DNA from: an uncultured Syntrophaceae bacterium
GTDB taxonomy: Bacteria > Desulfobacterota > Syntrophia > Syntrophales > UBA2185
Direction: 5' to 3'
DNA: 64,000 bases
NCBI GenBank assembly: GCA_964541605.1
Contig: CAZIQY010000001.1
Span: 41,533 to 105,532 of the forward strand
Shown here: one piece after another, positions 40,972-56,834 of the stretch
How the letters are laid out: every line of letters begins with the position of its first letter
How positions within the stretch are numbered: the stretch's first letter is position 1
The notes under the pieces: model-generated
What the model was told of the DNA's origin: nothing
The model's input: only the letters and a program-made list of their open reading frames with translations
Databases searched by the model: none
Made by a program: the position numbers and the translations under genes

Positions 40972-41451
40972 TCAGAACTCATATTCAAGATGTGCCTTCG
41001 CCACCAGATCTCTCGGTATACGATACGTCCTTCCCGCAACATCCACTATCAGAATCTTTCTTCCATTTTCATCCAGATAATCAACCAGTTTCCCCTGAAA
41101 ATTTCTGATCCCTTCTATTTTCCGGTCAGCCTTGACGCGAACGTTACACCCCCGGTATTTCATGAAATCTTTATCCCTCGCAAGAGGCCGATCAAGACCG
41201 GGAGACGAAACTTCCAGGGTGTAGGGACCGGGAGGAATATCATGGACATCAAGGATATCACCCACCTGATGGCTTATTTCAGTACAATCATCAAGCGTAA
41301 CCCCATCTTCCCTATCCATGAAGATTCTCACTATCCAGCGGGTCTTCATTCTCAGGCACTCAACATCGACCAGTTCCATATCCTCATCTGCAAGAACCGG
41401 CTCTATCAATTCCCTGATTTTTTCCTTATATGTTCGATCCGCCTCTCTCAT
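40972..41451 (-). CDS. rimP: ribosome maturation factor RimP
   Basis: The start is taken at MREADRT (41451). LEVSSPGLDRPL motif. First gene of the rimP-nusA-infB operon. Confidence 0.9.
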   Translation of the reverse strand: MREADRTYKEKIRELIEPVLADEDMELVDVECLRMKTRWIVRIFMDREDGVTLDDCTEISHQVGDILDVHDIPPGPYTLEVSSPGLDRPLARDKDFMKYRGCNVRVKADRKIEGIRNFQGKLVDYLDENGRKILIVDVAGRTYRIPRDLVAKAHLEYEF

Positions 41452-41616
41452 CTCTTGCCCCGGCAACCAATTTTCCCCAGGCAGAATGAAGTTCCTGGAA
41501 AAAAAAAGTGGGCACAGGCCCACTCATCAAGAACACACGATGATTTTCCTGATTTTTTTAACACACAATATTTGTCTTTGCAAGAGAAATTTAAGACTTA
41601 CAAGAGAAGGGGCTTA

Positions 41617-41647
41617 ATAAAAGATTGGAGCGGGCGATGGGAGTCGA
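41617..41647. repeat. attL-like direct repeat: orphan copy of the tRNA-Gly 3' end plus 9 nt
   Basis: ATAAAAGATTGGAGCGGGCGATGGGAGTCGA is identical over 31 nt to 56751-56781. The flanks diverge on both sides. Confidence 0.85.
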
Positions 41648-41806
41648 TATTCCTCAAGAGGCGGGGTAGCTGGGATTACCTTAGGGGAGTGACAAGAGGT
41701 AATCCGTTGTCATGAAAAGCTCTTGACAGCAATGACCATCAACTGTTATTTAACAGCCACTACAAAGAATCCTGTTTTCCCATTTGTCGATTGCTCAGAG
41801 AGGAGT

Positions 41807-42019
41807 ATGTCTATGAATGACTCGCCGGGTAATGTCCTGACCATAGAAGAACTGGCCATTTACCTGAAGATTTCAAAATCCACCCTTTACAAGCTTGTCC
41901 GTGAAGGCAAAATCCCTTCCCAGAAAGTAGGGCGTCACTGGCGGTTTCGTAAAAAATCCATTGATCGGTGGCTGGAAGAAAACGGCCCTGCGTCCGACTC
42001 CTTACGAGAGAATGATTGA
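41807..42019 (+). CDS. excisionase-family (MerR-like) helix-turn-helix DNA-binding protein
   Basis: 70 aa starting at ATG 41807, preceded by AGAGAGGAG. LTIEELAIYLKISKSTLYKLVREGKIPSQKVGRHWRFRK..ID.WL is the excisionase-type HTH pattern. Its stop overlaps the brxF ATG (TGATG). Confidence 0.75.
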   Translation: MSMNDSPGNVLTIEELAIYLKISKSTLYKLVREGKIPSQKVGRHWRFRKKSIDRWLEENGPASDSLREND

Positions 42020-42492
42020 TGGCAGAATCCCTTGCAGAACAGATTCTTGGTAAGATCGGCAATATCTCTGAGCTTTATCATCGCCTTATGATTGTCGCTG
42101 CCCCGACCGGCGCCGGAAAAACAAGGACACTCCAGGAGGTTCACAAGCAGATAAGTGCACCGCTCATCAATGTGAACCTGGAGTTATCGCGGCGCATGCT
42201 CGATCTCACCGAACGTCAAAGGGCGCTGCAACTTCCCCGTCTCATAGGAGAGATGCTCGATGAGATCAAAGAAAACACGATTCTACTCGACAACATCGAG
42301 ATTATTTTTGATGTTGCTTTAAAACAGGACCCCCTAAGGCTTCTTCAGGGGCTTTCAAGAAACAAAACAATTGTCGTGAGTTGGAACGGTTCGCTTGAAA
42401 ATGATTTTCTTACTTACGCTGTGCCAGGTCACCCGGAATACAGACGTTATCCGACGCGGGGAGGGGACTTGCTGATCGTAGGGCCGGCATGA
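42019..42492 (+). CDS. brxF: BREX type 3 P-loop protein BrxF-like
   Basis: ~157 aa small ATPase with Walker A AAPTGAGKT. Size, motif and position immediately upstream of a BrxC/PglY-type gene match BrxF. Confidence 0.65.
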   Translation: MAESLAEQILGKIGNISELYHRLMIVAAPTGAGKTRTLQEVHKQISAPLINVNLELSRRMLDLTERQRALQLPRLIGEMLDEIKENTILLDNIEIIFDVALKQDPLRLLQGLSRNKTIVVSWNGSLENDFLTYAVPGHPEYRRYPTRGGDLLIVGPA

Positions 42493-42534
42493 ACGGAATA
42501 AATTTTCCCAGAACAGGGGAGGAAGGATGAACCC

Positions 42535-44055
42535 ATGAAATACGGTGATTTAATCCAGTTTGAACCGATCGAATCCGTTGTGCAATTACGGAGCGCTAAT
42601 TCTTCCGCCGCCGCCCGGCAGCTTGTCGAAACCTATGTCATCTCCGTCGAGATGGCTGAAAGGCTAATCGGTCTCGCTATCCCGCAGCTTCAGTTTGACC
42701 AGCCCGCAGACAATAAAGGGATGCTGGTTGTCGGCAATTACGGCACGGGAAAATCCCATCTTCTATCTGTCATCTCCGCCCTGGCGGAGAACGTAGAACT
42801 CGCCTCCCATCTGAGCGACCAATCCGTGGCCAAAGCAGCAAAAAAGATTGCGGGGCGATTCAAGGTTGTCCGGACCGAGATCGGCGCAACGACCATGTCC
42901 CTGCGCGATATTATCATTGCCGAATTGGAAGAGCATTTGGAAGCCATTGGCGTGATTTTTTCCTTCCCACCCACATCCAAAGTATCAGAAAACAAAAGCG
43001 CCTTCGAGGAAATGATGGCGGCGTTCCACCAGAAGTTTCCTGATCTCGGACTGCTCCTGGTCGTGGATGAACTTCTCGATTTCCTCCGGACACGAAAAGA
43101 TCAGGAGCTTATCCTGGATCTCAACTTCCTCAGGGAGATCGGCGAGGTATGCAAGGACCTGCGTTTCCGATTCATCGCCGGTGTTCAGGAAGCGATCTTC
43201 GACAGTCCCCGGTTTTCTTTTGTGTCCGATAGCATCCGCCGGGTAAAGGATCGGTTTGAACAGATTCTGATCGCCCGTAATGATGTCAAATATGTGGTGG
43301 CCGAGCGCCTGCTCAAGAAGACCGGCGACCAGCAGGTTAAAATCCGGGAGTATCTGACGCCCTTCGCCAGGTTCTACGGCCTTATGAATGAGCGTATGGA
43401 CGAGTTTGTCCGCCTGTTTCCCGTGCATCCCGATTATATTGATACGTTCGAGCGGGTCGCGGCGGTGGAAAAACGCGAGGCACTCAAGACCCTGTCCCTC
43501 GCCATGAAGAAACTGCTCAATCAGGACGTCCCGGACGACTGTCCGGGACTTATCGCTTACGATAGCTACTGGATAACCATTAAAGAAAACGCGGCGTTTC
43601 GCGCCATCCCGGAAATCAGGGAGGTCATTGAGTGCAGCGCAAAACTTGAGGGGCTGATCAACAGCAATTACCCGAAAGGCAAAAATAAGGACTTTGCCGG
43701 AAGAATTATCCATGGCCTGAGCCTGCACCGGCTGACCGTCGGCAGCATTGAAACGCCTGTGGGCCTGACATCGGAATCATTGAGGGATTCTCTGTGCCTC
43801 TTTGATCCAAACGTAGCCGATCTTGGCGGAGATCCTGCCGATGATCTGCGTGGAGAAATTGAATCGGCAATACGAGTGATCAGCCAAGCCGTCAATGGTC
43901 AATTCCTGTCGGCAACAGAGACGGACGTCAATGGAAGACTGAGCGGGCAGTTCTATCTCGACGTTCATAAAACCGTGGATTACGCGCACAGGTTCGTAAT
44001 CGCACCGAGAGTCTCGAATCATCGCAGCTTGATCGCTATTATTATGAAGCCCTGA
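42535..44055 (+). CDS. brxC: BrxC/PglY-type (DUF6079-like) large P-loop ATPase, N-terminal fragment (frameshifted gene)
   Basis: 506 aa. N-terminus [18 protein letters not shown] and Walker [10 protein letters not shown]. The last ~22 codons ([23 protein letters not shown]) look out of frame relative to the following ORF. Confidence 0.7.
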
Positions 44056-44063
44056 AGCGGGTC

Positions 44064-46280
44064 ATGGAATGTACTGATTACACCTATGTCACCGGCTACA
44101 AGATCTGGCAGCATGAGATCGAGTGGCTGGAACGGAAGGCCGCACGCCTTGGGTACCTCTTTTTCGGCGCGCCCAATGAGCGATCCACGGCAGTGCCGCC
44201 CCGCGATTTTTATCTTTACTTCCTTCAACCTTTCGAGGCGCCGTCCTTCAAAGATGAGAAGAAGCCGGACGAATTATTCCTTCACCTGAAAAATGACGAT
44301 GAAACATTCCGCACGGCATTACGAGGCTATGCGGCGGCCCTCGATCTCGCCTCTACTGCATCAGGCCATGCCAAAAACACCTATGAATCCAAAGCGACAA
44401 ACTTTCTGAGAGAACTGGTCCAATGGCTCCAGAAGAACATGGCGACGGCCTTCGATGTCACCTGTCAGGGACGGACAAAACCCCTCACCGAATGGGCAAA
44501 GGGAAAGTCGATCCGCGAGCTGTCCGGCATATCGTCCCATGAGCGGATCAATTTTCGCGATATGGTGAACACCGTCGCGGGAATGTGTCTCGACAGCCAT
44601 TTCCGGGATCAGGCACCGGATTACCCCTTCTTTTCGGTGCTCATCACGGGCGCCAACCGCGCCCAGGCGGCACAGGACGCCTTGCGGGCCATTGCCGGCC
44701 AGAACCGCACCAAGCAAGCAACGGCGGTTATGGATGCCTTGGGGCTCCTCGACGGGGAGCGGATTGATCCGTATCAGTCAAAATACGCCCGATATATTCT
44801 CGACAATGCAAAGAAGAAAGGCGCCGGCCAAGTTGTCAATCGGTCTGAACTGTTCCAGGAGGTTCTCGGGGTCGAGTATCTGGCGCCGCAAACGCTGCGA
44901 CTGGAACCGGAATGGGCGGTGGTGGCACTGGCCGCGCTGGTTTATGCCGGAGAGATTGTATTGGCCATTCCCGGCAAGAAGTTCGACGCCACTATCTTAC
45001 CACAAATGGCCGGTACCGGCGTGGAAGAGCTGGCCCAATTCAAACACGTCGAACGCCCTAAAGACTGGAATATCCCGGCGCTCAAAGCACTTTTTGAACT
45101 GTTGGGACTCCCTCCAGGAATGGTTCAACAGATTACCCAAGCGGATGAGATACCGGTTCAGCAAATGCAGAAGACTGTCTCGGAAACGGTCAACCGGTTT
45201 GTCGTCGCCCAGCAGAATTTACATAATGGCCTGTTCTTCTGGGGGCGAAGTCTCCTGTCCGAGGATGAAGTTCAGAAGTTGAAAGCCCGACTGGAAGAAA
45301 CCAAGACATTTCTCGAATCGCTTCAGGCGTACACCACGCCGGGGAAACTGAAGAATTTCCGTTACGATGCCCAGGAGGTAAAGGGCCATCACGAAGGATT
45401 TCAGTCCCTGAAGGAAATTGAATCCCTGCAGGAACTGGCCAATGAGCTCGGGACGGTCGCGTCGTATCTTTCCACAGCGGAAGCGGTTTTGACTACCGGG
45501 CATGAATGGCTCGACAAGGTGAAGTCCGTGCGCGATGAAGTCCTCGGGCAGATCGGCGACCCGGACAAGCGCGGGGCGGCCGCCTTTCGCCAGCAAACCC
45601 AACGCCGGTTGACGGACCTAAAAAAGGCCTATAGCCAGATCTACCTCGCCCACCACAGCAAGGCACGGCTGGGTGTAAAGGATGACAAGCGCAAGGTCCA
45701 GCTCATGGGCGACGAGCGGCTCAAGGTATTACAAAAACTCTCTACTATCAATCTTATGCCGCTCCAGCACCTGACCGATTTCCAGAACCGGCTTGCAGGC
45801 CTGAAAAGTTGCTTCGCCCTCACCGAACAGGAACTCAACGCAGCACCCGTCTGCCCGCACTGCAACTATAAACCGGGATCGGAACCCCAGACGGCGCCCG
45901 CTGCGAAGATGCTCGATGCTTTGGACGACGAGCTTGATAAACTGGTCGAGAATTGGACACAGACCCTTTTGACAAATCTGGAAGACCCGACCACTAAAGG
46001 AGCCTTAAGCCTGCTCAAACCCGAGCCACGCAATCTGGTAGATGGCTTCATAAAAAAAAGAGCCCTGCCGGACAACCTAAACCAGGACTTCATTTTCGCA
46101 CTCAAAGAAATCCTCTCGGGACTTACGCCTGTGTCCATCAAAATCGCTGACCTACGTTCCGCGCTCCTTGCGGGCGGCTCACCGGTCACCCCGGCGGAAA
46201 TGAGAAAGCGGTTCGAAGACTACCTGGATCATCTCATTAAGGGTAAAGAGCCAGGTAAGGTACGGATTGTATTGGAGTAA
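44064..46280 (+). CDS. brxC: BrxC/PglY-type ATPase, C-terminal fragment (frame open from 43971)
   Basis: 738 aa. Upstream of the listed Met, the same frame reads ...[41 protein letters not shown], which continues naturally from fragment 1. The two fragments together make ~1240 aa, as expected for BrxC/PglY. Confidence 0.7.
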
Positions 46281-46318
46281 TTTCCAAGTATGCATACGAA
46301 TGGACAAGGAACGATGGA

Positions 46319-47935
46319 ATGAAGATCGCAGAACTCAAAAAACTGCTGAAAGCTGGTGAATGGAACGATATCGAGTTCAAGGAAGCTCGCACCGCCGTTT
46401 CCAAATCCGCGTTTGAGACCGTATCCGCCTTCGCCAACACCCACGGCGGCTGGATCGTGTTCGGCGTCTCCCAGCATGGCGAAGAGTTTAAAGCCACCGG
46501 CGTTGAGATGCCGGACAAGGTGTAGGGCGATTTCCTGTCTGTTCTTCATGCCGACGCCAAGGTCAATCATGACGTTCAGGTAACGGAGAAACGGTACGAT
46601 TTTGATGGTGCAACTGTTCTTGCCTTTCACATTGCTGAAAATCCACGCACCCGGAAACCGGTCTATCTGGACGGCGACATCCGGCGGACCTTCCTGCGCA
46701 AGGGCAGCGGGGACTACAAAGCCCAGATGACTGACATCGAGCGCATGTTACGCGACGCCACCGCCGACCGGTGGGATAGCCAGCCGTTTGACCGTGTGCT
46801 GCTCAAAGAGGCGTTTCATCCGAGCAGCCTGCGGTGGTATCGGGACCGGTTCCATCAGGTCAATGCCGGCTTCGATCCTAAACAACCCGATCAGGAGTTT
46901 CTCTATCACTGGGGCTATCTGCTCCGGGATGGAAAACGTTTCATCCCGATCCGTGGCGCCATCATGCTCTTTGGGTCTCCCTTGGCGGTCCATCAGCTCA
47001 TTCCGCGACCGACGCTGGATTTTCAGTTTTTAGGCTATGCCACCGACGAGCCCATGCCCGAGACGCGCTGGATTGACCGGATCGTATGCGAGGAGAACAT
47101 CATCCAGGCCTGGGATCAACTGGTCAGCAAGTACAAGTTCTTCATGCCCAAACCTTTTAAAGATATTGATCCGGTTACCCTGGGCCGCCGAGACGATCCC
47201 CCGGGGTTTCGCGTGTTCCGCGAAGCGGCTGTCAACCTGCTGACCCATCAGGACTATGGCGATCATTCCCGCAAGGCTGTCATAAAATTCTTCCGCGACG
47301 GCATCCAGTTCTGGAATCCCGGCGACGTATTCGGGGACGATTCCCGGCTGCTTGAACCCGGAGAAAAAGAGGTCCGCAACCCGGTCATTGCCACGGCCAT
47401 GCGCCGGATAGCCATGTGCGAGCAGGCGGGCACGGGCATGCGCATGATGCGCGAAGCATGGCAGGCCCTCGGACACCCGGCGCCTGTTTACAAGAACGAC
47501 CGTGCATGGAAAGCATTCGATCTCTTCATCCCGGAACTGGATAAAGAAGTGGATATGGCCTCGGATCTGATGAAGGCCATGTTCGGGAAGACACCGACCC
47601 CTTCAGGCGGCACGGATACCGAACAAGTCGAAGCCCATGAGGAGGCCCAAGTCAAGGCCCAAGAGGCCCAAGTCGAAGCCCAAGTTGAACTCCTTAAGTG
47701 GCAGCATGACATCCTGACATCTTGTTCTTCCGGCGAGAAGACAGGCAAGGAATTCTTGGAAATTGCCGGCTATAGCAGCCGCACTGGGAACTTCAAGAAG
47801 GGTCTGCAAAGACTGCTTGATTATAAGCTTCTTGAATTGACCGTTCCCGACAAACCCAACAGCCGTCTGCAGAAATACCGGCTCACCGACAAGGGCCGTC
47901 GGCTTCTGGTCAAGGCGCGAGGAGACGGCGTTTGA
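46319..47935 (+). pseudogene. AlbA_2 (Schlafen-like) domain / ATPase-like / winged-helix protein interrupted by an in-frame TAG
   Basis: The ORFs 46319-46525 and 46727-47935 are in one frame. The only interruption is TAG at 46523-46525, and the sequence continues ...PDKV*GDFLSVLHADAKVNHDV.... The N-terminus ELKKLL..GE...IEFKE fits the AlbA_2 pattern. The C-terminus has PDKPNSRLQKYRLT, typical of this regulator family. Confidence 0.7.
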
Positions 47936-47999
47936 CCAAGTTTGTGACCAACTACTGCCAACTTGGTTATTGAACAAATCGAAGGAGAAGGAGTATCTA

Positions 48000-50021
48000 A
48001 TGAGACTTACATACCTTCGCATACAAAATTTCCGGGCATGTAAAGACATTACCTTAGAAATTGGCGAGATGCATGCGCTCGTCGGCGCCAATAATGCCGG
48101 CAAATCCGCAATGCTTCGGGCCTTGGATTTCCTATTCAACCCGAGTACAAAGTCCTTGAATGAAGAATCTTTCTGGAACAAAGACACCAGCCTGGAAATC
48201 CGAGTGGAAGCCATTTTTACTGACCTTACAGACAAAGAAAAAGAAGCGTTGGGCGCTTATCTGAAGGCGGATAAGACATTCCACATGGCCCGCTCCGCAA
48301 GAGTGGGCGTTAAGAGCGGCGAATCGGAGACCGATTCAGGACAGGACGAAGAAAAGATTGGAATTGGACAACATTACAAAAAACCCATTCCTGAGCCGGA
48401 ATGGCTCCAGGAATCCAACATCAACGGAAATAACATCAAGGAATGGTGGAAAAACAAAGACCAATTAGCCGTAGGCGGCGTAAGTTTCGCGGATTTTCTC
48501 AATGTAACAATCAAGGCACCGACTGTGGGAGATTGGAAAGAAAAGGCCAAAGAATTTATCACGAATCATGCAGACAAGATTCCGATGCAAGACGCATGGA
48601 CCGATAATCCGAAGGGCTATGCCAATGTCCTAAAGGGGACATTGCCCTTTTTCGTTCTCGTTCCTGCGGTCAGGGATGTGACCGAAGAATCCAAGGGAAC
48701 CAAAAGCAGCCCCTTCGGCAAACTGCTGTACGCAATCCTTGACACGATTACTCAGGAAAAGAGGGTCAAGATCGAAGGCATTCTCGGAGATGTTGCTAAA
48801 CAGATGAACCGCGCCGGCGGGGAAGAGCGTGTTCCGTTGATTGCCGACACGGAGAGGCAACTCAACACGCTGCTGAACGATTTCTTTACCGGATGCGACC
48901 TCGAGATCGAGTTTGAAACCCCGACGCTGGAAGTCCTTCTCAGTGCGCCAAAACTTTTCGTGGACGACGGCTTCAGGAATGCCGTCGAGAACAAGGGGCA
49001 CGGCCTGCAAAGGGCAGTCATCTTCACTATTCTGCGGCGCTATGCGGAACACATGACATCCGCGCCCGATGGGAAGAAGCGCAATCTCATTCTCGCGGTC
49101 GAGGAACCGGAACTCTATATGCATCCGCAAGCACAACGAATTATCCGACAAGTGTTTCGTAAGATCGCCGAGGGAGGAGACCAGGTAATCTTCTCAACCC
49201 ATTCGTCACTACTCGTGGATGTTGCCTATTTTGATGAGATCATTCGGATGGAAATCAGTGTCGAGAAAACAGACGGCAAGAAAACGATGATAAGCAGGGC
49301 ATGGCAGTTGCCCATGTCGAAGATGGTTAAGGACCTTGAGACCAGATTTCCGGCTCTCAAAGGAAAAGCCACACCTGAATCCATGCGTGATCGGTACTCC
49401 CATGCTTACAATCCCCGGCGCAACGAAGGATTTTTCGCTTCAAAAATCATCCTTGCTGAGGGTCTGACCGAGGAATACAGTTTGCCTATTTACGCCGATG
49501 CGCTTCCGGATTGTTCCTTTGACCCTCAAGGCATCAGCGTTGTTGAATGCGGCGGTAAAGGAGCGATGGATCGCCTCTTCAGGATATTCAACGAACTCCA
49601 TATCCCATGTTATATTCTCTTTGATTATGACAACGGTAACCCAGACAAGAACATCATTGAAAAATCCAAAGAACTCCTCTCCCTGGTTGGTGAAATTCAG
49701 GATGCCCCACAATCGCTTTTAGTCACCGATTGTGTAGCCTGCTTCCCAAAGAAATGGGAATCTGATCTGAAAAGCGAAATCCCGGACATTGAAACCTTAA
49801 CAGCCGAAGCCAGAAAGGTACTTGGGCTGAGTGACGACACTGGCAAACCGCTGATTGCCCGTTATATCGCCAGAAAAATCACATCCCGCAGTCCGGCAGT
49901 TGTTCCACCAAGTCTCAAGACAATTATTGAAAAGGCCGTGGCCGTGACATGGAAACAGAGTTGCCTCAAGACCGGGGCATGCCAGCCCATTTCTGAAGTG
50001 CAGGGGAAAAATGATGGATGA
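48000..50021 (+). CDS. OLD-family ATP-dependent nuclease (ABC-type ATPase + Toprim), no partner helicase
   Basis: The start is taken at ATG 48000 (GAAGGAGAAGGAG upstream): MRLTYLRIQNFRA. Walker A GANNAGKS, signature-like GHGLQR, Walker B ILAVEEPELYMHPQ. C-terminal Toprim with ILAEGLTEE ... VVECGGK ... LFDYDNG. Its stop overlaps the pglXI start by 11 nt. Confidence 0.8.
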   Translation: MRLTYLRIQNFRACKDITLEIGEMHALVGANNAGKSAMLRALDFLFNPSTKSLNEESFWNKDTSLEIRVEAIFTDLTDKEKEALGAYLKADKTFHMARSARVGVKSGESETDSGQDEEKIGIGQHYKKPIPEPEWLQESNINGNNIKEWWKNKDQLAVGGVSFADFLNVTIKAPTVGDWKEKAKEFITNHADKIPMQDAWTDNPKGYANVLKGTLPFFVLVPAVRDVTEESKGTKSSPFGKLLYAILDTITQEKRVKIEGILGDVAKQMNRAGGEERVPLIADTERQLNTLLNDFFTGCDLEIEFETPTLEVLLSAPKLFVDDGFRNAVENKGHGLQRAVIFTILRRYAEHMTSAPDGKKRNLILAVEEPELYMHPQAQRIIRQVFRKIAEGGDQVIFSTHSSLLVDVAYFDEIIRMEISVEKTDGKKTMISRAWQLPMSKMVKDLETRFPALKGKATPESMRDRYSHAYNPRRNEGFFASKIILAEGLTEEYSLPIYADALPDCSFDPQGISVVECGGKGAMDRLFRIFNELHIPCYILFDYDNGNPDKNIIEKSKELLSLVGEIQDAPQSLLVTDCVACFPKKWESDLKSEIPDIETLTAEARKVLGLSDDTGKPLIARYIARKITSRSPAVVPPSLKTIIEKAVAVTWKQSCLKTGACQPISEVQGKNDG

Positions 50022-52806
50022 CCTTTTCGGTAGTCCAGAAACAAAAGCCAAATTAGCAAGGCGGATCGAATGTCTCGGCATGACATTCACGAATGACGAG
50101 AAGCGGCGGAAGCACTTCCTGGAGAAACTGAGTGAAAAGCTCAAGTACCCCGATTTTCGCAAGATCGAGGGATTCCCCATCGGCTCGGAAGAGGACATCC
50201 TGGCGCTCTCCGACCCGCCATACTACACAGCCTGCCCGAATCCCTTCATCGCGGATTTCATCAAGCACTATGGCAAGCCCTTCGACCCGAGCATACCTTA
50301 CAGCCGCGAGCCGTTCGCCGCGGATGTGAGCGAGGGTAAGAACGACCCGATCTACAATGCACACTCCTACCATACCAAGGTGCCTCACAAGGCCATCATG
50401 CGGTACATACTCCATTACACCGAGCCGGGTGATGTGGTCTTCGATGGATTTTGTGGGACCGGAATGGCAGGAGTAGCCGCGCAGCTTTGCGGTGACCGAA
50501 GTGCAATTGCATCTCTCGGCTATACACTAACTGAGGATGGAAGCATCATAGATGAGGACAAGCAGACGATCTCTCAATGTGGGGCCCGAGTTCCTATCCT
50601 GAACGACCTCTCGCCCGCTGCAACATTAATAGCCGCTGGTTACAATTTGACAACGGATTCGAAGGGGTTCGCACAATTTGCCAGGAAGCTTCTGGACAAA
50701 TTCAACCGCGAATACGGATGGATGTATGAGACGCGGGATCACAAGACAGGCGCGACTTGTCCGATTGACTTCACCATCTGGTCGGACATCTTTTCCTGTC
50801 CCCATTGCGCCGGAGAATTGGAGTTCTGGGACTTGGCCTATGATGAGGCATCAGGAACGATTGAAGATCAGCCCACTTGTCCACATTGCTCGGCTGAGGT
50901 TTCCAAGCGCGATCTCGTCAGACTCACAACCACCTACTACGACAAGGCGTTAAAAGCGACCCGGACACGTCAGGTCTTGCGTCCGGTAGAGATTCGATAC
51001 CAGCACCAGGGAGCGAAGAAGAGCAAGAAACCCGACAAGGACGATTTCGCCTCCCTTGAGAAAATCGAAAGACTGATCGAGTCCATCGAGTACCCGACAG
51101 AATTGATGATGTTTGTGCCGGAGGGAGAGGAATGGGGTGACCTCTATCGCGGATATCACGAGGGGATCAGCCGAGCACACGATTTTCATCTGCCGCGCCA
51201 GCTCGTCGCGTTTTCTCTGTTGTGGCAAATGGCTGATGACCTGCCCAAGGAGGAGATGAAGCGGCTCTGGCGGTTTACGTTGCAAGGCATTGTTGTGAGC
51301 TTCACGCGCAGGAACCGGTTTCGCGAGAAGGCATACTCTCAAGTAAACACGAACCTCAGTGGCACACTGTATATCGGCTCAAGAGTCAGTGAACCGAGCC
51401 CAACCTATGTATTGACCGGCAAGATCAAGAGATTTGGCAATGCGATTCCAAAGGGTGGCTCTGCGGTAGCTATAACCACGCAGTCTCTCGCCTCCGTGCT
51501 GATCCCGGATAGCTCAGTTGATTACGTGTTCATCGATCCGCCCTTCGGCGACAACTTGCCCTACGCCGAGCTGAATTTCCTGTGGGAGGCTTGGCTCCGC
51601 GTATTCACGAACTCGGGGCAGGATACCGTTGTCAGCGGCAAGCAGCGGAAAGATCTGGCTGTCTACACAAACATGATGACGGATTGCCTGAAACAGGTCT
51701 ATCGCGTCCTCAAGCCAGGCCGGTGGGTTACGGTTGAGTTTCACAATTCCAAGAACGCTGTTTGGACCGCGATACAGGAGGCTATGGGGCGCGCCGGTTT
51801 CATCATCGCTGATGTCAGTGTGCTCGATAAGGGGATGAAGACCAAGAAGCAGATGCATGCCAAGGCAGTCGACAAGGACCTTGTAATCTCCGCCTACAAA
51901 CCGAACGGCGGTCTCGAAAAGCGATTCCAACTCCAGGCTGGAACCGAAGAAGGGGTTTGGGATTTCATTCGAACCCATCTGCATCAGCTTCCGGTTTTCC
52001 TCAAGAAGGATGGGCGTGCTCAGGTCATCGCAGAAAGACAGCAGGTTCTGTTGTTTGACAGGATGGTCGCCTTCCACGTCCAGCGCGGCGTAACCGTTCC
52101 TCTGTCCGCGGCGGAGTTCTATGCCGGACTTGTCCAGCGGTTCTCCGAGCGGGATGGGATGTACTTCCTCCCCGAGCAGGTGGCCGAGTACGACAAGAAG
52201 CGCATGACCGTCCGAGAGGTTCTGCAGATCCTGCTCTTTGTCACTGACGAGTCCTCCGCGATTCAGTGGCTTCGACAGCAGCTCCTGAGAAAGCCCCAAA
52301 CGGCAGGTGAGTTGAAGCCCCAGTTCATGCAGGAAATCGGAGGATGGCAGAAAACCGAGAAGCTGCTCGAACTCGATGAACTGCTTGATCAGAACTTCCT
52401 ACGTTACGATGGCAAGGGCGAAGTGCCGAACCAGATTCACAGCTATCTGTCCACCAACTTCAAGGAGCTGCGCAACCTGCCGAAGGACGACGAAGGTCTC
52501 CGCGGCAAAGGCAAGGACCGATGGTACGTGCCAGACCCGAACAAGGCCGGCGACCTGGAGAAGATGCGCGAGAGGTCGCTGCTCAAAGAGTTCGAGGACT
52601 ATCGGACATCCAGCCAGAAGCGCCTGAAGGTGTTCCGCCTCGAGGCCGTCCGCGCTGGCTTCAAAAAGGCATGGCAGGACAAAACGGAAGAGGGTTACCG
52701 CACTATCATCGAGGTAGCAAAGAAGATCCCGGAAAACGTACTCCAAGAAGACCCAAAACTTCTAATGTGGTACGACCAAGCGCTCACCCGCGCGAGGGAG
52801 GAATGA
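50011..52806 (+). CDS. pglXI: BREX type 3 DNA methyltransferase PglXI-like (N6_N4_Mtase family)
   Basis: 931 aa. DPPY (SDPPYYTACPNPF) followed by the AdoMet motif VFDGFCGTGMAG, a CxxC...CxxC insert, and a second catalytic-type FIDPPFG. It belongs to the ParB-less N6/N4 methylase class used by type 3 BREX rather than the PglX class. Confidence 0.8.
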   Translation: MMDDLFGSPETKAKLARRIECLGMTFTNDEKRRKHFLEKLSEKLKYPDFRKIEGFPIGSEEDILALSDPPYYTACPNPFIADFIKHYGKPFDPSIPYSREPFAADVSEGKNDPIYNAHSYHTKVPHKAIMRYILHYTEPGDVVFDGFCGTGMAGVAAQLCGDRSAIASLGYTLTEDGSIIDEDKQTISQCGARVPILNDLSPAATLIAAGYNLTTDSKGFAQFARKLLDKFNREYGWMYETRDHKTGATCPIDFTIWSDIFSCPHCAGELEFWDLAYDEASGTIEDQPTCPHCSAEVSKRDLVRLTTTYYDKALKATRTRQVLRPVEIRYQHQGAKKSKKPDKDDFASLEKIERLIESIEYPTELMMFVPEGEEWGDLYRGYHEGISRAHDFHLPRQLVAFSLLWQMADDLPKEEMKRLWRFTLQGIVVSFTRRNRFREKAYSQVNTNLSGTLYIGSRVSEPSPTYVLTGKIKRFGNAIPKGGSAVAITTQSLASVLIPDSSVDYVFIDPPFGDNLPYAELNFLWEAWLRVFTNSGQDTVVSGKQRKDLAVYTNMMTDCLKQVYRVLKPGRWVTVEFHNSKNAVWTAIQEAMGRAGFIIADVSVLDKGMKTKKQMHAKAVDKDLVISAYKPNGGLEKRFQLQAGTEEGVWDFIRTHLHQLPVFLKKDGRAQVIAERQQVLLFDRMVAFHVQRGVTVPLSAAEFYAGLVQRFSERDGMYFLPEQVAEYDKKRMTVREVLQILLFVTDESSAIQWLRQQLLRKPQTAGELKPQFMQEIGGWQKTEKLLELDELLDQNFLRYDGKGEVPNQIHSYLSTNFKELRNLPKDDEGLRGKGKDRWYVPDPNKAGDLEKMRERSLLKEFEDYRTSSQKRLKVFRLEAVRAGFKKAWQDKTEEGYRTIIEVAKKIPENVLQEDPKLLMWYDQALTRAREE

Positions 52807-52809
52807 GCG

Positions 52810-53769
52810 ATGCCGAATCGAACCGTGCAGCCTGTCCACTTTGAGGACTTCGATGGCCATCAGTTTGAGCGCCTCGTATTCGCTTATTTGCTCAGAACGG
52901 ACAACTGGCTGTCACTTGAGTGGTATGGGCAGACAGGAAGCGATTCAGGAAGAGACATCTGGGGCATCAGGGAACGGGACGGGCATCCCCAAGGGCAGAA
53001 GGTTTGTATCCAATGTGCCAATCAGAAGTCACTTACGTACATGAAAGTACAGGAAGATTTTGAGAAGATTCTTAGCGGGCCTAACGGGAAGCCGGATACT
53101 TTTATTGTCGTTGCTGGCGGAACGGTGTCGGCAACGCTGAGAGATAAAACCAAGAAACTTTGTGAAAAGAAACAGGTCTATACGAGCGAGATTTGGTCCG
53201 GGAAGGAATTTGAAGAGCGGCTAAGAGCAAAGGCTGAGTCTTTGTTAAAACGGTTCATTGGAGGAGAGGAGTTTCCGGACGTTCCAGCTGACATTCGTGA
53301 CTTCGCGGAAGCGATCACTCCCCAGTCCGATGATGAGATTCTCGCTTTGATGGCCGGGCTCTTTGACAGGCCCGCCTTTTCTACCCCGTTCCATCAAGAG
53401 AGTTCAATTCCAGCTTTCAAAAAAGCGATCACCGACACGATTGAAGCTCTGAACACCGGAATACACCGCCTTAGAGATGGAACAGAAATCCGTCGCATTC
53501 CAAGCAGGCACGCAATCCAATCAGTGGAGACCAAGAGGACATTGTCACATATTGAACGAATGCTCAGTGAACTCCGTGCCAAATACGATGAAAGCATCAA
53601 GACTGGAGAAATCCGCCCGTGTGGCTGCAATGTTCCAGACTGCCCTGTCTTTTTTGTTTCCTCTCGCGCAGCTAACGAAATAGACCGCCTGCGTGAAGAA
53701 ATACTGGGAACTTTTCGCAGGCTATATCCTGCTTTCGATGTAAGGCTTGGTTGGAGGCACTGGTGCTAA
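52810..53769 (+). CDS. uncharacterised protein with N-terminal Mrr-like PD-(D/E)xK nuclease signature
   Basis: 319 aa. FE.LV...L followed by GSDSGRDIWG and VCIQCANQK resembles the Mrr_cat pattern (D.G.D ... Q.K). The C-terminal ~150 aa have no motif I recognise. Only a 3-nt gap separates it from pglXI. Confidence 0.45.
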   Translation: MPNRTVQPVHFEDFDGHQFERLVFAYLLRTDNWLSLEWYGQTGSDSGRDIWGIRERDGHPQGQKVCIQCANQKSLTYMKVQEDFEKILSGPNGKPDTFIVVAGGTVSATLRDKTKKLCEKKQVYTSEIWSGKEFEERLRAKAESLLKRFIGGEEFPDVPADIRDFAEAITPQSDDEILALMAGLFDRPAFSTPFHQESSIPAFKKAITDTIEALNTGIHRLRDGTEIRRIPSRHAIQSVETKRTLSHIERMLSELRAKYDESIKTGEIRPCGCNVPDCPVFFVSSRAANEIDRLREEILGTFRRLYPAFDVRLGWRHWC

Positions 53770-53975
53770 TGGGCGATTGGTACTACAGCCCGGACCACGG
53801 GCAGCTATGTCAGGTCATCGACTCTCAGACTCTCTGGAGTGAGACGACCTGCCGGGTGTGGCTGCCATGGTGCAAACGAAATACCAAGCACCTGAAGGGC
53901 AGCCGCATTGAGGCGGCCTGCCCCGGACTCGAGAATGCTTGGCAGAAGGGCGGCAGCCATGAGCAACTGGCGTGA
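53769..53975 (+). CDS. small hypothetical ORF (68 aa), translationally coupled on both sides
   Basis: The ATG overlaps the upstream stop (TAATG), and the 3' end overlaps the pglZ start by 17 nt. MGDWYYSPDHGQLCQVIDSQTLWSETTCRVWLP looks like a small beta (SH3/Tudor-like) module. The remainder is basic and low-complexity. Confidence 0.35.
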   Translation: MGDWYYSPDHGQLCQVIDSQTLWSETTCRVWLPWCKRNTKHLKGSRIEAACPGLENAWQKGGSHEQLA

Positions 53976-55965
53976 TCAGATTCTCAAGGAATTTGCACCG
54001 CAAGTTTCTCGGCTTACCCTGGTGGCAGACCCGGATGGGCTGCTGTTGGAGGAAGGTATACTGGAGGGCATCCGGGAACGGGGATTCGAGCTCATTCCTT
54101 TTGAAGACCCTGTCGCTTTTCGCTATGCCTACGAATCCGGATTCCGTTCGCGATGGGATTGCGGAGAACAAGAACAGACCGACCTTGTGGTAGTGTTGCG
54201 ATCCCAGACCAGCGACCTTAGCACATTGCCCTTCGATTTGCTTCAGGCGGGTCGCAAGCTGTCTTTCAATCTTGGCGACATCTTTCCCACTCTCAGTTAT
54301 CCCATCATTACTGCCCTGGATCGCGGCGATCTTGACGCCTTGTACAAAGCCCAGAGACGCCATATGCCCGGTCAGCTCGGCGATAACGCCACCAAGGAGT
54401 TCGTCCTTAGGCATGTTTTTGAAATCGCGGTGGAACTCATCAAGGAGCCATCCGATCTGCTGAGGGTACTCCTGCGCCGTCACTACCGCGGACAGTGTAT
54501 ACCCGGGGTTCTCGACGACCGCTTTATCCAGATTCTCCGGCAAACTGACAGCTTCGCCGGGTGGCCTCTGGAGAGAATCGTTCCGGATCGGGAAGCTTTT
54601 TTGTCCTTCCTACAAGAACGCTGGCCATTGTTCCTGAACCGGGGGCATGTTCAGGACACCCAGACCGGTGTAGAAGAATATGCCGGATACATCTTCCAGA
54701 TACCGGGACCGCCGGATCTGCCGTTTGATCACCATGATGTCCGCGTTTACATGGACACCTTCTTTCTTGAAGGTCTTCTGCACCCGGTCACCCACGAACA
54801 GGCGGGAATGATCGCCAAGACCTGGGCCGGTATCGGTGTCCGAACCGACTTTGCCGGAGATCGAACGCGTCGTCTGGAAAAGCTGCTTGCCGGCATCCGC
54901 ACTGCTATTCCGGCTGAGGATGTTCGCTATGGAGAGTGGTTATTATTTGCCCGCGGTTGGGCGGAGTTGATCGTCATTGCCCATGAGGCGCCCGCTGATA
55001 TCAAAACCGAGCAAGGAATCAAAGAAATTCAGACCCACGTTGACCATGCCTTCACTTCCTGGTTGACCCGGAGGTTCGCCGGGCTGATCAACCTGCCTCC
55101 TGCGCCGCCGGTCATGCTCCATCATCTGCCCCGATACCTAGCGCGCCAGGTGATTGAGGACAAAACGTTCAAGGCCGCTCTCTTGGTGATTGACGGGCTG
55201 GCCTTGGACCAGTGGATCGTGGTGCGTAAAATAATTGCGTCCCAGCGGCCCATGATCCGCTTCCGGGAAAACGTTGTATTTGCCTGGGTTCCGACACTCA
55301 CCTCGGTCTCCCGGCAAGCCCTCTTCGCCGGCAAGCCGCCGATTTTCTTTCCGAACAGCATCCTGACGACCGAGAAGGAATCTGCCTTGTGGTCACAGTT
55401 CTGGGCAGATCAAGGACTGACGCCGAACGAGATCGCCTACGCCAAGGGATTTGGTGACGGAAGCTTGGCCCATCTCGAAGAGATGCTTACTCATCCCAGA
55501 ATCAGGGTGGCGGGGCTGGTCATAGACAAGGTTGATAGAATCATGCACGGCATGGAACTGGGCACGGCGGGCATGCACAACCAGGCGCGTCAATGGGCGG
55601 AACAGTCTTACCTGGCCTCTCTTCTTGACCTGCTCCTCGACCGGGGATTCCTGGTTTTTCTGACATCAGATCACGGAAACATTGAAGCAGAAGGTTGTGG
55701 ACGTCCCTCGGAAGGGGCAGTCGCCGACCTGCGCGGCGAACGGGTCCGCATCTATTCCGATCCGCTTCTGAGGAAAAAGGTCGGAGATCGATTTCCGGAC
55801 GCGGTGGAATGGCCGCCCATTGGGTTGCCGAATGATTATCTACCCTTACTGGCACCCTCTCGAAAAGCGTTCGTTCGTGAAAAAGAACGTCTCGTCAGTC
55901 ACGGTGGGATATCCATAGAGGAAGTCATCGTTCCTCTTGTTCAAATAGAGAAGAAGTCCGTATGA
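53959..55965 (+). CDS. pglZ: BREX alkaline-phosphatase-superfamily protein PglZ
   Basis: The start is taken at MSNWRDQILKEF (53959). N-terminus L.LV.DPDGLLLEE.IL..I...GFELI.FEDPVAFRY.YE. PglZ domain with VIDGLALDQW and LTSDHGNIEA. Confidence 0.88.
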   Translation: MSNWRDQILKEFAPQVSRLTLVADPDGLLLEEGILEGIRERGFELIPFEDPVAFRYAYESGFRSRWDCGEQEQTDLVVVLRSQTSDLSTLPFDLLQAGRKLSFNLGDIFPTLSYPIITALDRGDLDALYKAQRRHMPGQLGDNATKEFVLRHVFEIAVELIKEPSDLLRVLLRRHYRGQCIPGVLDDRFIQILRQTDSFAGWPLERIVPDREAFLSFLQERWPLFLNRGHVQDTQTGVEEYAGYIFQIPGPPDLPFDHHDVRVYMDTFFLEGLLHPVTHEQAGMIAKTWAGIGVRTDFAGDRTRRLEKLLAGIRTAIPAEDVRYGEWLLFARGWAELIVIAHEAPADIKTEQGIKEIQTHVDHAFTSWLTRRFAGLINLPPAPPVMLHHLPRYLARQVIEDKTFKAALLVIDGLALDQWIVVRKIIASQRPMIRFRENVVFAWVPTLTSVSRQALFAGKPPIFFPNSILTTEKESALWSQFWADQGLTPNEIAYAKGFGDGSLAHLEEMLTHPRIRVAGLVIDKVDRIMHGMELGTAGMHNQARQWAEQSYLASLLDLLLDRGFLVFLTSDHGNIEAEGCGRPSEGAVADLRGERVRIYSDPLLRKKVGDRFPDAVEWPPIGLPNDYLPLLAPSRKAFVREKERLVSHGGISIEEVIVPLVQIEKKSV

Positions 55966-56720
55966 AACCCAAGAGTCGGATACAGCAGATCGGCATTGAC
56001 AGGATCGTTCGCCTGGAATGGTTGGAACGAACGGCTCAACTTGCTTTGGCCGTCAATCAGCCAAGCACAGTCAAGCAAAGCATGTTGGAAATTTTAGCGA
56101 CCAGTTTTCCAACATCCAACCCATCTGTCCGGGGGTCACTTGCCAAAACGGTAACTATTTTGATGAATGTCTGGTTATCCGGACCAAAGGAAATTGCCGA
56201 TTTGAGGAAAGTCGGATTGGAGTTGCTGCGCATAAAGTCGGGCGGAGATCGTCTGGCGATACATTGGGCTATGCTTATGGCAACTTATCCCTTCTGGGGC
56301 GCTGTAGCAGGCCAGGCAGGACGGCTGCTGAGGCTTCAGGAAACCATCACCGCGGAACAGGTTCAGCGCCGCATCTGCGAACAGTACGGCAAGCGGGAAT
56401 CCGTTTTCAGAAGGGTTCGTTACGTCCTCAGATCTTTTATTGCCTGGGGGGTGCTGCAGGAAACCGAAACAAAAGGCATCTATCGTCGTGGGTTGTCCTT
56501 ATCTATTGACGATCCCCAACTTATCGCATGGGTGATTGAGGCTGCCCTTCATGCGAACCCCAACGGCTCGACAAGATTCACAGACCTTCTGGAGAGCACA
56601 AGCCTATTCCCGTTTCGTCTTGTGACGATTTCCGCGGAACAACTGACCGCAACATCACCCCGCCTGGATCTCTTTCGTCACGGCATGGATGAAGTCCTCG
56701 TAATGTTGCGTAAAAAGTAA
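55962..56720 (+). CDS. BrxA-like (DUF1819-like) terminal BREX protein
   Basis: 252 aa helical protein. Its ATG overlaps the pglZ stop (ATGA). The assignment rests mainly on its position as the last gene of a type 3 locus. I cannot verify the sequence-level similarity. Confidence 0.45.
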   Translation: MKPKSRIQQIGIDRIVRLEWLERTAQLALAVNQPSTVKQSMLEILATSFPTSNPSVRGSLAKTVTILMNVWLSGPKEIADLRKVGLELLRIKSGGDRLAIHWAMLMATYPFWGAVAGQAGRLLRLQETITAEQVQRRICEQYGKRESVFRRVRYVLRSFIAWGVLQETETKGIYRRGLSLSIDDPQLIAWVIEAALHANPNGSTRFTDLLESTSLFPFRLVTISAEQLTATSPRLDLFRHGMDEVLVMLRKK

Positions 56721-56750
56721 AATATTTAAGAATAATCTCTGGGAGAATTG

Positions 56751-56781
56751 ATAAAAGATTGGAGCGGGCGATGGGAGTCGA
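56751..56781. repeat. attR-like direct repeat (tRNA-Gly 3' 22 nt plus 9 nt downstream)
   Basis: Identical 31-mer to 41617-41647. It overlaps the T-arm, acceptor stem and CCA of the intact tRNA. Confidence 0.85.
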
Positions 56782-56834
56782 ACCCACGACGTCCAGCTTG
56801 GGAAGCTGACATTCTACCGCTGAATTACGCCCGC
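56760..56834 (-). tRNA. tRNA-Gly (anticodon CCC)
   Basis: The minus strand reads GCGGGCGTAATTCAGCGGTAGAATGTCAGCTTCCCAAGCTGGACGTCGTGGGTTCGACTCCCATCGCCCGCTCCA. I folded it by hand: 7-bp acceptor stem, D arm ATTC/GAAT, anticodon stem TCAGC/GCTGG with loop TTCCCAA, T arm GTGGG/CCCAT with TTCGACT, and an encoded CCA. Confidence 0.93.

Follow-up and report, generated by a model that had tools for sequence, protein, structure and literature searches.

A BREX type 3 island without an integrase, probably inserted site-specifically at tRNA-Gly(CCC) in an uncultured Syntrophaceae bacterium

Introduction

How did a block of defence genes come to lie between two copies of a tRNA 3' end when none of its own genes resembles a recombinase? 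The first-pass annotation of the window (the whole stretch of 64,000 nucleotides analysed here) had proposed an island integrated at tRNA-Gly(CCC) that had either lost its integrase and become stranded or was mobilised in trans by one encoded elsewhere, two options that are not exclusive of each other. Taken as a whole, the description of the locus as a site-specifically inserted, integrase-less, att-flanked island is probably correct, while the view that the integrase was supplied in trans, rather than encoded by a lost cis copy, is given somewhat less than an even chance. L numbers below designate the sampled sequences used for comparison.

Results

The 31-mer ATAAAAGATTGGAGCGGGCGATGGGAGTCGA occurs exactly twice in the window, as had been reported from the sequence alone, and a window scan allowing up to three mismatches returned no further copy (chance expectation 0). 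The elements that define the site are as follows.

40972-41451, minus strand: rimP (NCBIfam RimP), first gene of the core operon left of the island
41506-41525, minus strand: terminator-like hairpin (terminator scan), natively positioned after tRNA-Gly
41617-41647, no strand assigned: left direct repeat, distal att site (exact match to 56751-56781)
56751-56781, no strand assigned: right direct repeat, tRNA-proximal att site (exact match to 41617-41647)
56760-56834, minus strand: intact tRNA-Gly(CCC), the integration target (ARAGORN; Rfam RF00005, 64.2 bits)
56907-58208, minus strand: hisD (TIGR00069, 1.2e-159), core gene right of the tRNA

ARAGORN and Rfam each place one intact tRNA-Gly(CCC) here; the right repeat therefore consists of its final 22 nt followed by 9 nt downstream, with the block of identity starting in the T-loop, and the left repeat is indeed an orphan fragment of the same 22+9 nt, located 165 nt upstream of rimP (start taken as 41451). 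A conserved promoter-like TTGACA-N16-TAAGAT for the tRNA gene is found at 56910-56883. Minus-strand operons lie on either side, rimP-nusA-infB to the left and hisD-murA-prmC-prfA-rho to the right; the exact 159-aa RimP protein is on record in six contigs and the exact HisD protein in nine.

The insert itself spans 15,134 bp (41648-56781) and corresponds to a single phage-defence operon of BREX type 3 (HTH_17 regulator, brxF, brxC, pglXI, pglZ, brxA) with three accessory genes embedded in it. All genes between the repeats are defence genes on the plus strand, and gene families on both flanks bear out their reported position between minus-strand housekeeping operons.

41648-41711, plus strand: left arm of the island, 64 bp (homology of other module copies begins further right)
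41712-41812, plus strand: conserved, putative BREX promoter/leader (left edge of the module, sharply defined in five distinct genomic contexts)
41813-42019, plus strand: HTH_17 (excisionase-family/MerR-like) DNA-binding protein, 68 aa (Pfam HTH_17, 4e-20)
42019-42492, plus strand: brxF (PADLOC BrxF, 1.4e-70; 157-aa gene call from L001)
42535-46280, plus strand: brxC/pglY pseudogene, two ORFs (PADLOC BrxC profile positions 1-475 and 502-1231)
46319-47935, plus strand: accessory gene 1, Schlafen/AlbA_2 + HATPase_c_4 + Fic-like_C, pseudogene (Pfam; translation)
47970-50021, plus strand: accessory gene 2, OLD-family ATPase/TOPRIM nuclease (Pfam AAA_15, 3.3e-39, and OLD-like_TOPRIM, 2.6e-19; PADLOC Old, 1.2e-83)
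50011-52806, plus strand: pglXI, BREX type 3 methyltransferase (PADLOC PglXI, 1325.9 bits, full length)
52810-53769, plus strand: accessory gene 3, Mrr_cat/LmuA-like PD-(D/E)xK nuclease, 319 aa (Pfam, PADLOC)
53908-55965, plus strand: pglZ (PADLOC PglZ, 6.9e-302)
55962-56720, plus strand: type 3 brxA, last gene of the island (PADLOC BrxA, 1.9e-92)
56721-56750, plus strand: right arm of the island, 30 bp (alignment, junction listing)

The left arm carries an 8-bp inverted repeat, GGATTACC (41673-41680) and GGTAATCC (41698-41705), and has no counterpart in any other copy of this BREX module: at least 20 related BREX contigs become homologous to the window only from 41712 or 41722 onwards. The region that follows would, judging from its motifs, act as the promoter and leader of the operon, with TTGACA at 41723-41728, TATTTA 18 nt downstream and a GAGGAG ribosome-binding site at 41800-41805. 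The HTH_17 protein, which has 1,724 homologues with a typical length of 68 aa, is likely a BREX regulator; wherever a sampled context extends far enough, the next gene is brxF. In the window the start of brxF overlaps the HTH_17 stop codon (TGATG); the two genes are translationally coupled. An island-specific excisionase was also considered for this gene and rejected, as it is the conserved first gene of this BREX subfamily. The true starts of accessory gene 2 and of pglZ likely lie near 48000 and near 53965 (666 aa), respectively. Accessory gene 3 is recognised by Pfam Mrr_cat (0.0019) and by PADLOC PDC-M58A (6e-8) and LmuA (5.5e-6), and its slot is variable, being occupied by YopA in L014 and by OLD+UvrD in L016. 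From the stop codon of brxA to the right repeat there are 30 bp, of which the first ~25 are conserved with the variant island of L014/L015.

Two genes of the cargo are broken. A 1-nt deletion after 43984 (gap placed by alignment) divides brxC into ORFs of 506 and 738 aa, while an intact BrxC of 1248 aa is found in L026, L027, L042 and L043. In accessory gene 1, whose 68-aa fragment received the SLFN_AlbA_2 assignment in L001, an in-frame TAG (46523-46525) stands where L028 has CAG, and L042 has an intact 538-aa version. The frameshift and the nonsense codon indicate that the BREX cargo is decaying.

The empty site predicted by the first-pass annotation, i.e., the rimP upstream region joined to tRNA-Gly through a single 31-mer, exists in metagenome contigs of the same species: L013/L035 (JGI 3300013090) and L037 (JGI 3300025807). 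These three contigs represent two distinct places, since L013 is a piece of the L035 contig. In their flanks they are 99.8-99.9% identical to the window, and the junction has no indel (L013: 3/2430 and 1/1418 mismatches, 0 indels); across >17 kb they agree with it at 99.82-99.87% identity, the one gap being in the left flank at a distance from the junction. The order hisD-tRNA-Gly-rimP, with tRNA-Gly(CCC) immediately upstream of rimP, was found in 7/7 related species examined (L004-L008, L049, L057), and the site is scar-free in every outgroup. Because all seven related species are empty there, the empty site is the ancestral state. The hairpin at 41506-41525 is kept in four of five aligned relatives (L004, L005, L006, L008), the slice of L007 being too short, and the insertion has left it ~15 kb from tRNA-Gly. 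Island-plus and island-minus contigs form two haplotypes ~0.15% apart, so that a single old gain or loss, with no mobility today, would suffice to explain presence and absence. Scans of viral contigs with the 31-mer gave no circular (attP) junction, and the metagenome subset gave the empty site only.

Neither Pfam, PADLOC nor NCBIfam matched a recombinase in the island ORFs, and a tblastn of the island with one tyrosine and one serine recombinase query returned nothing below E=0.3. Moreover, non-coding DNA amounts to 450 of 15,103 bases, with a largest gap of 165 bp, so that no integrase or remnant can fit. Family searches and coding density thus uphold the earlier reading that the island encodes neither type of enzyme, and the possibility of an overlooked integrase pseudogene in it is answered likewise. 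Outside the island, no integrase was detected among the 28 window ORFs scanned (a set without two ~1070-aa ORFs and the pilN-P stretch), and no helper integrase was identified within the visible 64 kb.

Base composition says less about foreign origin. The spot counts of the first-pass annotation (55% vs. 42% GC) overstated the contrast, which is 53.1% for the island vs. 50.3% for the rest of the window, with host 5-kb windows ranging from 46.6 to 56.1%. The tetranucleotide distance of the island (0.184) lies just above the maximum of same-size host chunks (0.130 +/- 0.028; maximum 0.183). The island is therefore at most weakly distinct from its host, and a distinct composition holds in that weak sense, not as a clearly foreign one.

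Island genes are ~90% identical across species of which the core genes are ~80% identical: pglZ-brxA reaches 89.3% with L014 and 92.7% with L016, against 79.9% (L014) and 78.5-81.2% (L016) for the core flanks. This excess of similarity implies recent transfer rather than long residence. In L014, which belongs to a second species, a variant BREX-3 island adjoins tRNA-Gly(CCC) through brxA, with the same ~25-bp island end, and has no integrase at its tRNA-proximal end, the sole end recovered; islands of this family may carry an integrase at the left end. L015 is 99.97% identical to L014, yet differs from it in the upstream flank of the tRNA and by a SNP in the D-loop, and this short metagenome contig could be a chimera formed via the conserved tRNA. 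The BREX module is mosaic, with sharp recombination breakpoints at 41712/41722, ~46280, ~50055, ~52800, ~53777 and 56620. A distant BREX-3 relative (L019) is found ~6 kb from a Phage_integrase gene.

Discussion

We propose that 41648-56781 is a non-autonomous island of the CIME type (cis-mobilizable element) holding one BREX type 3 operon, which would have entered when the 3' end of tRNA-Gly(CCC) recombined site-specifically with a 31-bp core of the element that begins in the T-loop and stops 9 nt beyond the CCA end. Insertion would have regenerated the tRNA and left the displaced 22+9-nt fragment beside rimP, the recombinase having either acted in trans or been lost without trace. Established work describes one class of tyrosine integrases with tRNA targets by an identity block of this kind, beginning in the T-loop (bioRxiv 10.1101/2020.11.02.365908; Islander, PMC4383910). 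Most likely the recombinase was a tyrosine integrase of this class, which makes its crossover in the T-loop, and the crossover would be placed there in this case too.

That the island is a stranded remnant, its own integrase deleted, probably at the left, tRNA-distal end beside the 64-bp arm, with the rest inert and the polymorphism ancestral, is a possibility we entertain tentatively. Such a loss would be in keeping with the visible decay (brxC frameshift and nonsense codon), with the separate haplotypes of island-plus and island-minus contigs, with the integrase gene near the L019 relative and with a 64-bp left arm that, being unrelated to other module copies, could be a deletion leftover. 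Integrase loss is also the commonest proposed origin of att-flanked elements without an integrase (PMC5704250). Against it, no mobility-gene remnant is present, and the deletion would have had to stop no more than 64 bp from the att core. In tRNA islands, the integrase usually lies at the tRNA-proximal end; that this end is integrase-free in two island lineages that are ~10% diverged, belong to different species and have nonetheless moved horizontally also speaks against a loss. An island older than the strains, from which empty sites arose by precise RecA-dependent or slippage deletion between the 31-bp repeats, seems unlikely to us: a perfect direct repeat of this length can occasionally undergo homologous or slipped-strand deletion, which would regenerate the exact sequence of L013 and L037, but the empty ancestral state makes such deletion unnecessary, the first arrival of the island is left unexplained and the greater similarity of island than of core genes between species speaks for recent transfer.

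Spread by homologous recombination of the flanks after DNA uptake, the att repeat being an inherited scar, is feasible between co-occurring strains, in which the flanks are 99.8-100% identical, and the mosaic BREX module with its sharp breakpoints attests to recombination. It accounts neither for the first insertion nor for insertion at the same tRNA in species with flanks only ~80% identical, and as a full explanation we regard it as very unlikely, although it is compatible with the site-specific entry proposed above rather than opposed to it. Hardly credible, finally, is a transposon- or casposon-like insertion, in which staggered cuts would have duplicated a host target site and the island ends would be terminal inverted repeats. 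The part of the junction after the tRNA does match native sequence of the host clade in both island lineages (the window species, L049 and L057 natively have ATCTTTTAT, and L004 has ATTTATT(T/C)ACCCCCTCCAC); however, L015 has the same post-tRNA sequence in another host background, which argues that it travels with the island. The extreme ends of the island match at 9/14 positions in inverted orientation, but this score is not above controls, being reached by 421/500 shuffles. Furthermore, the island has no transposase, Cas1/casposase or polymerase, and a duplication of at least 31 bp that starts exactly in the T-loop is what an integrase classically leaves.

As for known systems, the CIMEs of Streptococcus and other Firmicutes are bounded by attL/attR at the 3' end of a target gene, lack integrase and transfer genes, and are mobilised only by the recombinase of another element (PMC5704250). 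The present island shares their boundaries and the lack of integrase and transfer genes, but CIMEs are described as decayed ICEs/IMEs, usually with gene remnants and often in tandem with a live element, whereas the present island, in a Syntrophaceae-like deltaproteobacterium, has neither remnant nor neighbouring element and carries one defence operon as its entire cargo. Islander tRNA/tmRNA islands (PMC4383910) likewise show an intact tRNA at one end, a displaced and identically oriented 3' fragment at the opposite end, precise insertion and an empty site in relatives, but are defined with an internal integrase gene, which the present island lacks. In Prochlorococcus, tycheposons carry cargo flanked by partial-tRNA repeats, some without a recombinase, and the recombinase-less ones occupy sites where integrase-bearing elements insert (bioRxiv 10.1101/2020.12.28.424599). 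The island resembles both these elements and staphylococcal pseudo-SCC cassettes in having recombinase-free cargo, here between partial-tRNA repeats, but both occur in arrays with live elements, whereas the window shows neither a tandem array nor a second element. In pseudo-SCC cassettes, rlmH-end repeats flank the cargo, and some, located at sites of integrase-bearing elements, have no recombinase. As a BREX type 3 system, the operon has BrxF, BrxC, PglXI, PglZ and BrxA in canonical order with strong profile matches; it differs in its frameshifted brxC and in the absence of the BrxHII helicase, reported in 77% of type 3 systems (PMC12839542), as well as in its three embedded, unrelated nuclease/ATPase genes and in the coupling of HTH_17 to brxF.

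Altogether, this non-autonomous genomic island is real, if of a fairly ordinary kind, and, because both of its att sites are perfect, it may still be excised or mobilised by an integrase of the T-loop class.

A defence island between two copies of a tRNA 3' end

The window contains exactly two copies of the 31-mer ATAAAAGATTGGAGCGGGCGATGGGAGTCGA, at 41617-41647 and at 56751-56781, and no further one is found even at 3 mismatches (by chance, none would be expected). An intact tRNA-Gly(CCC), the sole tRNA gene of the window, lies at 56760-56834 on the minus strand (ARAGORN; Rfam RF00005, 64.2 bits), so that the right repeat consists of the last 22 nt of this tRNA (second T-loop base through CCA) and the 9 nt that follow. 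The left repeat, 165 nt upstream of rimP, is an orphan tRNA fragment in the same orientation as the tRNA. The repeat scan, ARAGORN and Rfam agree with the first-pass annotation on the coordinates and description of the two repeats, the tRNA end and the orphan copy upstream of rimP. Both 31-bp cores are perfect, i.e., attL and attR are retained. Between them, the genes form one block, all on the plus strand, flanked by two core operons.

Features of the island and its flanks (window coordinates)
Left flank, minus strand: core operon rimP-nusA-infB
41813-42019, plus strand: HTH_17 protein, 68 aa
42019-42492, plus strand: brxF, overlapping the HTH_17 stop codon by one base
42535-46280, plus strand: brxC, interrupted by a 1-nt deletion
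46319-47935, plus strand: Schlafen/AlbA_2 + HATPase_c_4 + Fic-like_C gene (accessory)
47970-50021, plus strand: OLD-family nuclease (accessory)
50011-52806, plus strand: pglXI
52810-53769, plus strand: Mrr_cat/LmuA-like nuclease, 319 aa (accessory)
53908-55965, plus strand: pglZ
55962-56720, plus strand: brxA
Right flank, minus strand: core operon hisD-murA-prmC-prfA-rho

The BREX type 3 set (BrxF, BrxC, PglXI, PglZ and BrxA) is present in full (PADLOC E-values 1.4e-70 to 0), and the operon, which is of BREX type 3, lacks the BrxHII helicase and has three accessory genes embedded in it. BrxHII was absent from the island ORFs searched with Pfam and PADLOC, as it was from the recovered parts of the close relatives L014, L016, L027 and L042, L016 having a UvrD-family accessory helicase in the slot. 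In a recent survey BrxHII occurs in 77% of type 3 systems (PMC12839542), which makes its absence a known minority state.

The GC contrast of 55% vs. 42% put forward in the first-pass annotation proved to be a sampling artefact, the measured values being 53.1% for the island and 50.3% for the rest of the window, with host 5-kb windows spanning 46.6-56.1%. The tetranucleotide distance is 0.184 for the island, against 0.130 ± 0.028 for host chunks (maximum 0.183). Both contrasts are weak, so a clearly foreign composition was rejected; such weakness fits exchange among related Syntrophales.

Empty and occupied sites

A scan of metagenome contigs with the 31-mer retrieved one contig, L013 (JGI Ga0163209_1000111, 31 kb; also sampled as L035), in which the upstream region of rimP is followed by a single 31-mer, the rest of tRNA-Gly and hisD. 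Its left flank differs from the window at 3 of 2,430 bp and its right flank at 1 of 1,418 bp, and there is no indel. Looking up the exact HisD protein yielded the same empty-site arrangement in a second sample (L037, JGI 3300025807) and the island-bearing arrangement in L039 and L040, both 100% identical to the window. The empty-site contigs have one common SNP set and are 99.82-99.87% identical to the window; with empty and occupied contigs about 0.15% apart, two strains therefore differ by the presence or absence of exactly 15,134 bp. Moreover, tRNA-Gly(CCC) lies directly upstream of rimP in seven related species (L004-L008, L049-L056 and L057; GenBank titles Syntrophaceae or Deltaproteobacteria), whose RimP is 58-87% identical to that of the window, which indicates that the empty state is ancestral. 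The empty site proposed as a check by the first-pass annotation, with the upstream region of rimP joined straight to tRNA-Gly, is thus found within the species (L013/L035 and L037) as well as in these seven relatives.

Several other metagenome contigs of the same species (L003, L038, L036 and L041) have their end at the tRNA or the 31-bp repeat, or inside either: L003 (1-35) opens with 4 nt of tRNA context and then the repeat, and L038 (5876-5907) ends 1 nt beyond it. These breaks are consistent with branching of the assembly graph in a sample that contains both island-plus and island-minus alleles.

Decay and transcription context

Relative to the intact 1248-aa BrxC of L026, a BREX relative, brxC of the window lacks one A after 43984 (GATTACG-CGCAC), a deletion that splits the gene into ORFs of 506 and 738 aa. 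Because this 1-nt deletion lies outside any homopolymer, the BREX ATPase is probably inactive. The Schlafen-like gene carries a truncating TAG at 46523-46525 (codon 69), where L028 has CAG. The same lesions occur in L001 and L002, but these are 100.000% identical to the window (same population or data) and were rejected as independent confirmation of the pseudogenes. Support for the lesions comes instead from intact relatives: those about 90% identical to the window have an intact 1248-aa brxC, and L042, 90.6% identical over 8.8 kb, has an intact 538-aa version of the Schlafen-like gene together with the same OLD gene. In L028 (1278-1985), the Schlafen-like gene directly follows brxF and brxC is gone altogether, another sign of BREX decay in the group.

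The terminator-like hairpin that natively follows tRNA-Gly (41506-41525, minus strand, conserved) now lies 15 kb from the tRNA. No terminator was found at the right end of the island (56721-56760), and transcripts reading through from the tRNA promoter (56910-56883) would enter brxA in antisense. Downstream of the att site, rimP apparently keeps a conserved promoter-like element (TTGCAA) of its own.

Search for a recombinase and for other mobility genes

In agreement with the first-pass annotation, which had reported an island devoid of integrase, Pfam, PADLOC and NCBIfam give no match to a tyrosine or serine recombinase, a transposase or Cas1 for any ORF of the island. The nine genes leave only 450 of 15,103 bp non-coding, with a largest gap of 165 bp, which excludes a missed integrase pseudogene; a tyrosine recombinase from L019 and a serine recombinase from L033, used as tblastn queries, likewise gave only noise (E at least 0.3). 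Neither integration or transfer genes nor remnants of mobility genes were found in the island. Elsewhere in the window, 28 ORFs were scanned, 8 of them against NCBIfam and 20 against Pfam (the ORFs of about 1070 aa at 9026-12244 and 19234-22440 and the pilN-P stretch being left out); these 28 are housekeeping genes or have no match, and none encodes an integrase.

The small HTH_17 protein, of the excisionase family, was considered as an island-specific excisionase and rejected, brxF following it in every sampled contig that extends as far as the next gene, in five different contexts. It has 1,724 homologues, mostly of 68 aa, and no match among solved structures, while the gene upstream varies by contig (a Metallophos gene, a SIR2 gene, recG or a 284-aa gene).

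Other kinds of elements were rejected as well. For a prophage or phage satellite, the island has no structural, replication or packaging domains; for a phage origin, the 31-mer, the left-arm 30-mer and BrxA have no match in viral contigs, where the 22-nt tRNA end matched only an unrelated Firmicutes-like contig and a jumbo-phage tRNA array. Plasmid matches are weak (about 69%) and at the level of BrxC. A transposon or casposon would require a transposase or casposase, neither of which is present, and the inverted terminal match is 9/14, a local score reached by 421 of 500 shuffles. Finally, Xer/dif-type integration seems unlikely, the core being a tRNA end that, by eye, does not resemble a dif site.

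Horizontal movement of the BREX module

Related BREX contigs are about 90-92% identical to the window at the nucleotide level, with an abrupt onset at 41712 (41722 in the recG context), which coincides with a putative -35 box of the operon. The BREX-3 module begins at one shared base in five unrelated contexts (window 41712-41722; L020, L022, L028, L031, L042), and in the four others neither a tRNA fragment nor a mobility gene is visible upstream of it. The 64 bp between the left repeat and 41712, i.e., the left arm of the island, are unique to the window compared with related BREX contigs and carry an 8-bp inverted repeat (41673-41680 and 41698-41705). A reconstructed attP would be only about 125 bp long (30 bp, the 31-bp core and 64 bp).

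In the Lac Pavin MAG to which both L016 and L004 belong, pglZ-brxA is 92.7% and pglXI 86.6% identical to the window (L016), while its core flanks are only 78.5-81.2% identical and its rimP site is empty (L004). Similarly, in a third species (L014), pglZ-brxA is 89.3% identical and hisD-rho 79.9%. These comparisons show the BREX module to be horizontally mobile. In L014, the brxA end of the BREX island abuts tRNA-Gly(CCC), about 25 bp of the island end are conserved, and no integrase is found at this tRNA-proximal end. The left end of the L014-type island was not recovered through contigs with HTH_17 and RimP relatives. Over the island end and the tRNA, L015 and L014 share 99.97% identity, with one D-loop SNP in the tRNA, but the flank upstream of the tRNA is L008-like in L015 and L004-like in L014 (observed at L015 3661-3836 versus L014 4678-4860). 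Either two host backgrounds contain almost the same island, implying a very recent transfer, or L015 is a short chimera joined through the tRNA.

Inside the operon, two slots with sharp shared boundaries hold unrelated defence genes that are exchanged among relatives.

Content of the operon slots (coordinates of each contig)
Window, slot 1, 46281-50010: Schlafen-like gene + OLD
Window, slot 2, 52807-53777: Mrr-like nuclease
L014, 382-1746: YopA + 52-aa ORF
L016, 4149-7821: OLD+UvrD pair, looking like Gabija
L027, 4765-7019: different Schlafen-like allele

At the nucleotide level, the brxA homology of the window to L016 and L019 ends 100 bp before the stop codon (window 56620-56720; L016 10659-10759), while that to L014 and L015 continues, which marks a recombination breakpoint within brxA, close to the att site.

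Integration and mobilisation

A regenerated tRNA with a displaced 3' fragment is the established mark left when an integrase inserts an element (Islander, PMC4383910). Of the features used by Islander-type approaches, an intact tRNA at one end, a displaced 3' fragment at the other and a precise empty site in relatives are all observed here; the one lacking is an integrase gene inside. One class of tyrosine integrases that target tRNA genes typically gives an identity block starting in the T-loop, as summarised in a preprint (bioRxiv 10.1101/2020.11.02.365908). [quoted passage not shown] Just after the tRNA, ATCTTTTAT is the native sequence in the window species, L049 and L057, while the L014-type island has ATTTATTTACCCCCTCCAC, one mismatch away from the native L004 sequence. 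This suggests that the att arms derive from hosts of the same clade, within which the island family may have cycled.

CIMEs are defined by retained att sites and absent integration genes (PMC5704250). Given that an integrase is absent from both the island and the scanned part of the window and that both cores are perfect, the element fits this definition: like a CIME, it keeps attL and attR and has no integration or transfer genes. The island is therefore a real, integrase-less and att-flanked tRNA island with a known defence system, and the interpretation of the first-pass annotation is upheld overall, the empty site being as predicted and no recombinase having been found.

How the integrase was supplied can be read in two ways. 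The decaying cargo, together with the general prior, leans towards loss of an integrase formerly encoded in cis, while the tight ends and the integrase-free tRNA-proximal end in two diverged lineages lean slightly towards an integrase acting in trans. A more far-reaching version of action in trans, which we regard as rather unlikely, is that the BREX-3 operon belongs to a family of naturally integrase-less defence cassettes that the integrase of another element repeatedly places at the tRNA-Gly(CCC) 3' end of different Syntrophales hosts; the operon would then be a hitch-hiker instead of a decayed autonomous island.

Integrase-less att-flanked islands and mobile BREX loci are already known, and the island reveals no new kind of mechanism. 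What makes the present case valuable is its population-level evidence of presence and absence, together with the hint that a BREX cassette recurs and is possibly mobilised in trans. It is a clean natural case: strains 99.85% identical either carry or lack, at one tRNA site, a complete phage-defence system that has intact att sites at both ends and no mobility gene of its own, and the 31-bp core offers a concrete handle for tracing the responsible integrase. If the cassette moved in trans, defence systems would join the cargo that exploits the integrases of other elements. More generally, the island shows how uncultured anaerobes can gain or lose a defence operon as one discrete unit.
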